Assembly (NCBI RefSeq): GCF_048403405.1
Contig: NZ_CP183129.1
DNA from: Escherichia coli
GTDB lineage: Bacteria; Pseudomonadota; Gammaproteobacteria; Enterobacterales; Enterobacteriaceae
DNA length: 64,000 nucleotides
Direction: 5' to 3' (one strand)
The position numbers were made by a program. Of the stretch, positions 60,601-64,000 are shown in pieces (position 1 is the stretch's first letter; each line of letters opens with the position of its first letter).

Positions 60601-63600
60601 CTGACGGTGGCTGGCACTGACCCGTCAGAAATGGGAAGCTGGGTTGAATCAGGTGGCGTGTATACCACAACCCGAATGGCGACGATTGCCAGTACCAATC
60701 AGCACGCCAACCTGCAATTGCAGACGTGGAGTGATGGCGTAACGTCAGATCGCTATGACATCCAGTCCGGTTCTCCGGCGCAAGCCACATCAACTATCGC
60801 TACGGATAAAAACGCCTACACCGCTGGCGACACTATAACCGTCGCCGTGACGCTGAAAGACGCGCACGGTAACCTGGTTGAAGGGGGCGAGTCCTTACTG
60901 TCTGGTGATAACGTAATAGTGGAAGGAGCCGTACGTTCAGGAGGATGGTCTGAAAACGCCGGTGTTTATACTGCTACATGGTCGGCGCAAATGGCGGGAG
61001 ACTCTCACCACGCGACGCTGAAGTTGTCTGAATGGGGCAGCAGTAAACAATCAGAGAGTTATTCCATCCACAGCGGTGCTCCGGTGCAGGCAAATTCTGC
61101 TATCAGGACAGATAAATCGGCATATATCGCCGGGGAGCCATTAACCGTCACAATAACGTTGCGGGATGAGTTTGGTAACCCTGCTTTAGGGCTGACATCA
61201 GAAGTCATCGAGTCTTATATTGATAGTTTCGCGGTAGGCGGCGCAACTCCCGATTCTATGCGGTGGGTCGAGCAGAATAATGGTGAATATACCATTGTCT
61301 GGACAGCATGGGTTGCCGACGAAAATCTGGTTGCCAGTCTGAAATTAAAAACATGGGCAACGGAGATTAAGTCCTCGCTATACGGGATACAACCAGGTGC
61401 AGCGGCAAAAACTCAATCAACGATTGTCGCGGACAAAACGATATATATCGCTGGGGATAGCATAACGGTGACCGTTGTTCTTAAAGATGCCCAGGGTAAC
61501 TTTATTACTGATGGTGTTGTTCAGCTTAATGAGGAAAACGTACAAGTCAGGAATGCGGATCCTATCCAGGGCAATAATTGGGTTTACAACGGCAATGGGC
61601 AATATCAAAGACAGTATATGGCGCATTTTGCGGAAGCGAATTTGAATGCGCAACTGAAGATGGCTGGTTGGAGCGATGCCAATTATTCAAACAATTACAC
61701 TATTAAACCAGGTGAAGTGAGTCCGCTTGGTTCACAGCTTCGTATACGAGAAGTTTTAGTAGTGGAAGGGGCGGATTTACCTGTCAGTGCTTTATTAGTT
61801 GATGATTTTGGAAATCCGGTGGATAACGGTCTGGATTTGCTGGATGATGCAGTGTACTTACAAAATGTAGAAAAAAAAGAAGGGGAAAAATGGAGATATG
61901 TGGGTGATGGAATATATGAACGTACATATATGGCCTACCAAGAAGGAGAAAATTTAACTTCATTTATGGAGATTAAAGGTTGGCGTATATACGGACAACC
62001 ATCCTATACCATCCTTCCTTTTGTGGAAGTCGAGTTACTGAGTGTTAATGGTGTAAAATTCAGGGCGACAGATGGTTTTCCAGAAACAGGGTTTGATGGT
62101 GCAAAATTCACGCTGTTACTAACCCATAATATGAAAAATACGGATTATAATTGGACGGCTGGGATTTATGGAATTAATGTTGACAGTAATGGAGAAGTAA
62201 CATTATCTGTGCTGATAAGAAGTGAAGTTACTATTACTGGGAAACCCAAGAATGGTAAAGGGAATGATGTTGTATTTAAATTCAAGATTAAAAAATGGTT
62301 TACTAGTTTAGGTGCTACCAGTAGTAATACCTGGGATATCATAAATACTTCATGTAGCTATGGTCAAATGCCGTCATCTTTAGAATTAGCGCAGCGGCCA
62401 AGCGGTGGGGTAGTACCGCGAAAAGTAGGTACGTTGTGGGGCGAATATGGTAATTTAAAAACTTATGGGAACGCTTTTAGCGGTACGGATTATTGGACAA
62501 GCACTCAGCTCATGGGAGTACACGAGAAATTTAATCCTGAAACTGGTATATCAGAGCTTGGGACAGGAAAGTCTTCTGGCTTGTGCGTAGAGTATTATTA
62601 ACGAAGTAATTACTAAATTGCCCTGCATCAGCAGGGCAATTTATATTCGTTATTACGCAGAAGTACGCATCACACCGATAGTATTAAATTCATTTTTTAC
62701 ACTGAGCAAACGGGGGTCATGAAGCAAAACATTTGACCATAAATCATTGTCTTTAATTAATTGTTGCCAGCGCTTTTCATATTCTTTTTTACCATACACA
62801 GTGTAAATCAACGGCAAAATCACACCATTGATTTTGTTGGTGTTAATATTTGCCAGTAACTTCATAATGTCATTTTTTATAGATGCGCCATAGATCAGAA
62901 ATTTCGTATAAAGCGAGTTAACACAGGTGTAATCAAGACCATGTTCAGGCTCAAGTTTAAGCAATAAACTTTTGGCTTTGTCATTATGTCCTTTCAGTGC
63001 CATGAACATAGCCAGAATAGAGGTAATAATTGGATTATTACAGGTGTTTTGACTGTTAAGATTTAATGCAAAAGATATCGCGTTATCGAGGGGGGATGTG
63101 TAATAAAGTATAATTAATTTAAGAATGCTTATACCCATTTTATTGGGTTCAAGAGCAATACTTTTTTCTATTAGATTAAATGCTCTTGCAAGGTCACCGT
63201 TCAAAAAACATAGCAGAGACTGATAATAATAAACGTCTGGCGAATTAGGTTTGAGTAAATGTGCTTGCTTAAATAGCACATTAGACACTGAATGTTCATC
63301 TTTTAGCCCACTGATTAAACCCAGTAAACCCAATGCCTGAGAATTTGAAGGGTTAATTTCAAGAGCCTTTTCAATGGAGGTTACGGCCGTAGTTATTGCT
63401 TGTTTTTGTTCACTGAGTCCAAGGAGGGCTAATGATATATGGCATTCCGCCAGGCAACAGTAGGGCAAGGTATTTTGCGGTTGCGTACTCACACAATCTC
63501 TAAATATTACTAATGCTCGTTTCAAACTCTCTGGTGTATAACGATACATTTCCATTCTGCCATTCATATACATAACAGCAGAATCCAGAGATGGCATTTG

Positions 63601-64000
63601 TTGTGTATTAATAGATTTAAAATTAATATTGGGTATTTTTTCAATAAGAATATTAATTACTTGTGATAATAATACGGAAAGAGGATTATCGGGGTTGAAA
63701 TCAATACTTTGATGATCAATCAATTTATGTGTTCTGGCATGAATTAACTCAATAAATAAACGCCAGTTTTTACCATAGTGAACGACCTGACCCATAATAT
63801 AATATTCTGGACCTGTTTTATTGATAAACTGATGGATAGTGGAAAAATCACTGGCCTCATTTGTTACCGAAGCGGGTAAAATATCTAAACCACAAAAAGC
63901 ATATTTTGAAAGGCCCTGGACAAGTTCGTAATGGAGTTTTAGAACATTGATCGAACCTTCAGTACGAAAGGGAAAAACGGCAAGAGTAGTGGTCGACTTT

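Follow-up and report, generated by a model that had tools for sequence, protein, structure and literature searches.

The stretch of Escherichia coli DNA analysed here (NCBI RefSeq assembly GCF_048403405.1, contig NZ_CP183129.1; 64,000 nucleotides, hereafter the window) carries at its end one edge of the eip island, a satellite of the ETT2 type III secretion system. Two genes face each other at this edge: iatC (also named air or eaeX), which encodes an inverse-autotransporter adhesin of 3224 aa, and a gene on the opposite strand that runs off the window and whose stop codon lies 51 nt from that of iatC, with a hairpin in the spacer between them (Table 1). The window also contains dnaA-dnaN-recF-gyrB, with dnaA at about 4596-5999, which places the eip island about 55 kb from dnaA.

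Table 1. Coordinates of the features at the iatC/eilA end of the window.
Feature	Position	Strand	Remarks
nepI-iatC intergenic region	52726..52926	+	presumed adhesin promoter and putative site of EilA action
iatC (= air/eaeX), inverse-autotransporter adhesin, 3224 aa	52927..62601	+	reported EilA target
14 tandem 291-nt (97-aa) Ig-like repeats in iatC	56380-60447
Hairpin, perfect 13-bp stem	62614..62643	.	in the 51-nt iatC/eilA spacer; terminator scan
eilA, 3' part	62653..64000	-	codons 118-565 and TAA stop at 62653-62655
EilA TPR-like helical repeat region, about aa 280-463	62962..63513	-	Pfam, NCBIfam, PDB
EilA central region, aa 118-279, opening with LAVFPF	63514..63999	-	between winged helix and TPR region
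Internal ATG, Met186 of EilA	63793..63795	-	start of the 380-aa ORF; not the true start codon

On the minus strand, positions 62653-63999 form an open frame of 448 sense codons followed by a TAA stop, with no internal stops, and its translation exactly reproduces the hand translation of the earlier note (KSTTTLAVFPFRTEGSINVLKLHYELVQGLSKYAFCGLDILPASVTNEASDFSTIHQFINKTGPEYYIMGQVV...), which had described a partial, AT-rich gene convergent with the adhesin and running off the window. All of these points stand. The G+C content of the fragment is 0.352 (35%) against 0.514 (51%) for the whole window. The region 52500-64000 differs from E. coli MS 69-1 (NZ_CP146675.1) by one mismatch over 11.5 kb, and within the portion of the gene that the window contains neither MS 69-1 nor TUM14771 shows any difference from it. 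In these two genomes the full gene comprises 1698 nt and encodes a protein of 565 aa, WP_001176835.1, annotated as the HilA family transcriptional regulator EilA; its residues 118-565 match the window translation exactly. The edge fragment is almost certainly the 3' four-fifths (80%) of eilA, a HilA-type regulator. Position 64000 holds the final base of codon 117. The gene begins outside the window with 351 nt, or 117 codons, which include those for the winged-helix domain and are expected to encode MQLQHGKNNTQQYIFGDF...VPIVIVTDNEPV. The edge gene is a genuine conserved gene and not a chance ORF, and it is already known as a named and experimentally studied virulence regulator of E. coli, so that its recognition here adds no new biology in itself.

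The mechanical ORF list reported a single ORF at this place, of 380 aa at 62653..63795 (-), which begins at an internal ATG because the list omits ORFs running off the window. Read literally, this entry would describe a stand-alone TPR protein that starts at the ATG at 63795 and has no DNA-binding domain. Such a protein is scarcely credible, as the frame is open upstream to the window edge, the same DNA in other genomes continues for 185 codons above the ATG to the start annotated in MS 69-1, which directly follows GGAAGGAG, and the alignment with the HilA/EilA family profile already begins at the first residue of the fragment. The suggestion in the earlier note that the protein would exceed 380 aa is therefore borne out by the 565 aa found in genomes identical over the stretch.

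Membership of the family was assessed with the NCBIfam equivalog NF009037 (HilA/EilA family virulence transcriptional regulator; profile length 553), which has a curated cut-off of 589 bits. Full-length EilA scores 953.2 bits, with aa 1-552 aligned to positions 2-553 of the 553, and the window fragment alone scores 720.6 bits over profile positions 119-553. The model for the related regulator YgeH (NF008870) was also considered and rejected: against its cut-off of 800 bits, full EilA reaches 228.4 and the window part 131.3. The N-terminal domain was read from MS 69-1 and TUM14771, since it lies outside the window; it contains an OmpR/ToxR-type winged helix (Pfam Trans_reg_C, aa 31-104, E 8e-16), while no Pfam match to a receiver domain (Response_reg) was obtained in the full protein. 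PDB matches to aa ~10-110 are to the DNA-binding domains of CadC, ToxR, PhoB and SaeR, and with them the winged helix predicted in the earlier note to lie beyond the window was found in these genomes. No HilA-family structure is among the PDB sequence matches to EilA.

The best winged-helix matches in the PDB include CadC (5ju7, E 3.3e-10) and ToxR, and the NCBIfam CadC model also matches EilA at aa 40-115, as might be expected of a membrane-anchored one-component sensor of the ToxR/CadC type as opposed to a soluble activator of the HilA type. This CadC match is confined to the DNA-binding domain, however, and reaches 50 bits against a cut-off of 400, whereas the HilA/EilA model matches the protein from end to end. 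Moreover, no transmembrane-like segment is present in EilA, the highest mean Kyte-Doolittle value being 1.42 compared with the criterion of a 19-residue window with a mean of 1.6. EilA is thus predicted to be soluble, unlike ToxR and CadC, and a membrane-anchored sensor is exceedingly improbable.

The C-terminal part of the soluble regulator is helical and repetitive, in line with the TPR-like repeats noted earlier. In Pfam these repeats are weak, with matches of TPR type falling between aa 312 and 425, among them TPR_2 on aa 371-403 (i-E 0.0089) and ANAPC3 on aa 363-425 (i-E 0.0049). A clearer TPR signal comes from the NCBIfam families TIGR02917 (aa 316-463) and PilW (aa 280-374), and consensus-TPR proteins in the PDB cover aa 320-404 with E values down to 6.7e-17. 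Between the winged helix and the repeats, aa 118-279 gave no Pfam match and were assigned no fold by any library used, and both the HilA/EilA and the YgeH models of NCBIfam align through this region. The region, which opens with LAVFPF, presumably resembles the TolB-N-terminal-like domains of LAVLPF type that many uncharacterised regulators carry after their winged helix. Both it and the TPR region may serve as modules for the binding of partners or signals. There is a slim chance that aa 118-279 in particular bind a signal or a partner and thereby gate the activity of HilA-family regulators, in which case EilA would be a one-component sensor and not a constitutive activator controlled only via its own transcription.

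A close known counterpart is HilA of the Salmonella enterica SPI-1 island. Both proteins match NF009037 end to end (profile 2-553) and share an architecture in which an OmpR/ToxR-type winged helix without a receiver domain is followed by a TPR-containing region, and both genes have SPI-1-type translocator genes as neighbours. In a Salmonella hilA mutant, expression of EilA from pBAD brings back both the transcription of invF and the secretion of SipA, so that EilA can replace HilA in activating both; the two proteins have only moderate similarity, of 37% (PMC4210603). Unlike HilA, EilA is encoded on a small satellite island that lacks genes for a secretion apparatus, reportedly acts on ETT2 in trans, and also controls an inverse-autotransporter adhesin. 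Similarly, YgeH, encoded on the ETT2 island of E. coli, is a HilA-family paralogue in which winged helix and TPR region have the same layout; it has 458 aa compared with 565 aa in EilA, and its allele from strain 042 also complements hilA (PMC4210603).

According to the accounts of earlier work relayed in later papers, EilA modulates eipB, eipC, eipD, eicA, eaeX and ETT2 genes (PMC4210603, citing Sheikh et al. 2006), the targets on the unlinked ETT2 island being eivF and eivA (PMC7058095; PMC11068852, citing Sheikh et al. 2006). By the same accounts, a defect in eilA changes both biofilm formation and the adherence to epithelial cells (PMC4210603, citing Sheikh et al. 2006), and mutants of eilA and of eaeX both show reduced adherence and biofilm (PMC7058095; PMC11068852). 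The proposal in the earlier note of a dedicated regulator of the adjacent adhesin can be retained in part, since regulation of eaeX/air is reported in these citing papers (PMC4210603, PMC7058095, PMC11068852), but the regulator is not dedicated to the adhesin, as eip and ETT2 genes are also among its reported targets.

Alongside the identity, domain content, island context, conservation and purifying selection observed here, a mechanism can be outlined in which EilA, as a cytoplasmic HilA-family transcription factor of 565 aa, would most likely work as HilA does in Salmonella. The protein has an N-terminal winged helix with no receiver domain, then a central region to which no fold is assigned, and a TPR-like helical region. 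By analogy with HilA, the winged helix would contact DNA upstream of the target promoters, so activating virulence genes that are otherwise silent, AT-rich and horizontally acquired. To our knowledge, no EilA binding site has been published. EilA may bind the air promoter directly, and it would tie expression of the adhesin to that of the genes for translocators, chaperone and ETT2 regulators. The outcome, as reported, would be more adherence and biofilm formation.

The island into which the window runs can be followed in five reference loci (TUM14771, MS 69-1, JNE21-009, 33E and 042), which share the same gene order: nepI, iatC/air, eilA, a tip gene of the IpaD/SipD family, a hypothetical gene, a translocon gene of the YopB/SipB family (SctE), a small ORF, a SycD/LcrH chaperone gene, yicS, nlpA, yicL, setC and selC. 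With the eip names the order reads iatC/air, eilA, eipD, eipC, eipB, small ORF and eicA, flanked by nepI and yicS. SPI-1-type translocator and chaperone genes thus adjoin eilA in all five, past the window edge, and the chromosomal site and eip gene order from nepI to yicS in strain 042 are the same as here. A published description gives the eip locus six genes, placed between yicM (= nepI) and nlpA (PMC11068852). The G+C content is 37% across the stretch of the island from eilA to the chaperone gene, and the island is a horizontally acquired, AT-rich insert. The tRNA scan found no tRNA within the window; selC lies about 10 kb past the window edge, and the island sits between nepI and yicS, not directly at selC. 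The eip island marks lineages such as enteroaggregative E. coli 042 and ST69 bloodstream isolates, in which ETT2 is thought to be intact.

Linkage of the two convergent genes, raised in the earlier note as a point on which its reading depended, was found throughout, with iatC/air convergent to eilA in all six loci (the window and the five references). A megablast search with positions 62500-64000 returned 731 records in 730 of 5426 complete E. coli genomes, all with at least 90% identity, and the matched stretch is annotated as eilA (HilA family transcriptional regulator EilA) and iatC (inverse autotransporter adhesin IatC). The 5' end of iatC was found in 753 genomes, compared with 730 for eilA. 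One of the 731 matching records is a plasmid and not a chromosome, and one genome thus seems to have two copies of the eilA region, the second of them on a plasmid.

At the protein level, EilA of enteroaggregative E. coli 042 (EC042_RS21315, WP_001176839.1), the allele on which experiments have been done (Sheikh et al. 2006), is also 565 aa long and identical at 562 of the 565 positions (99.5%). The substitutions that separate EilA here from the 042 protein are N9T, N503S and D534E, two of the three falling in the window part. The eilA frame is intact in the window and in all five of the other loci that were read, and synonymous and nonsynonymous codon differences against three other alleles stand at 21:3, 10:2 and 51:3 (82:8 summed). 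The excess of synonymous over nonsynonymous changes indicates purifying selection on eilA.

These data bear on whether eilA might here be a cryptic, effectively non-functional remnant, silenced by H-NS and without a working ETT2 to control. The G+C content of the gene, 35%, is typical of silenced foreign DNA, and eilA is frameshifted in at least one ST59 isolate (PMC7058095). Fox et al. induced the eilA promoter in LB:DMEM, with transcripts near the detection limit, and detected no ETT2-secreted proteins (PMC7058095), which suggests that the regulon may be silent in many conditions. Against a remnant stand the intact frames, the synonymous excess and the inducibility of the promoter itself, together with the activity in Salmonella of the 99.5%-identical 042 EilA (PMC4210603) and the reports that the eip locus travels with intact ETT2 (PMC7058095, PMC11068852). 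A non-functional eilA is for these reasons improbable, and a functional regulator of the HilA type is preferred.

The adhesin gene opposite eilA is well conserved at its ends and variable in length. IatC of the window and Air of strain 042 are 99.5% identical over the N-terminal 560 aa and 98.7% over the C-terminal 450 aa, and adhesin length varies widely among strains with near-identical ends, from 3030 aa in TUM14771 to 3224 aa here and in MS 69-1, 3705 aa in 33E and 3806 aa in 042 (Air), while iatC of JNE21-009 spans 12,852 nt (about 4283 aa). The 042 adhesin is 582 aa longer than the copy here, a gap equal in size to six 97-aa repeat units. A range of 2459-2965 aa and no evidence of variation in repeat number have been reported (PMC6714894); the lengths found here exceed that range. 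In the same report, IatC of strain SMS-3-5 reaches the cell surface and its over-expression promotes biofilm (PMC6714894).

Variation also occurs where the two genes meet. A 501-nt probe over the eilA-iatC junction is at least 80% covered in 643 genomes, and in the rest of the genomes with a match (87 of 730) homology ends at about window position 62617, inside the hairpin. JNE21-009 and 33E both show this break, and in both iatC is still convergent to eilA, but its C-terminal tip has diverged. For IatC of 33E, identity to the window's copy is only 71.8% over the last 450 aa, compared with 98.8% over the N-terminal 560 aa. The C-terminal tip of the adhesin has at least two alleles, and a divergent tip beside a conserved N-terminus suggests recombinational exchange of the receptor-binding end. 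The hairpin itself folds at -25.2 kcal/mol (z = -7.2), and none of 200 shuffled sequences folds as well; it is probably a bidirectional intrinsic terminator of iatC and eilA. A sigma-70 scan of 62400-64000 gave 8 sites versus 6.7 expected, a difference that carries no information on promoters here.

Further features were observed elsewhere in the window. An AT-rich insert (G+C 0.33-0.40) between ilvN and uhpA, at 38449-41474 (+), contains two paralogous ORFs of 435 aa (38449-39756) and 500 aa (39972-41474), with 27% identity across about 370 aa (E 6e-25). Searches of Pfam, NCBIfam and PDB gave no match for the 500-aa ORF, and the sole NCBIfam match of the 435-aa ORF, to blaLAP, is not meaningful at 15.6 bits against a cut-off of 600. 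RefSeq calls the first ORF as only 160 aa (39274-39756); the paralogue alignment begins at residue 71 of the 435-aa frame, so the RefSeq start looks too far downstream. The full insert occurs in about 1024 of the 5426 E. coli genomes and also in strain 042. In addition, a RelE/ParE-family toxin gene and a helix-turn-helix antitoxin-like gene lie at 50647-51307 (-), between yicN and nepI and just upstream of the eip island, in positions obtained by shifting the annotation of MS 69-1 by 4595 bases; this toxin/antitoxin-like pair is also present in strain 042. An IS200C-family transposase gene is located at 35316-35774 (+), between tisB and the ilvB leader, and coincides with a local dip in G+C content.
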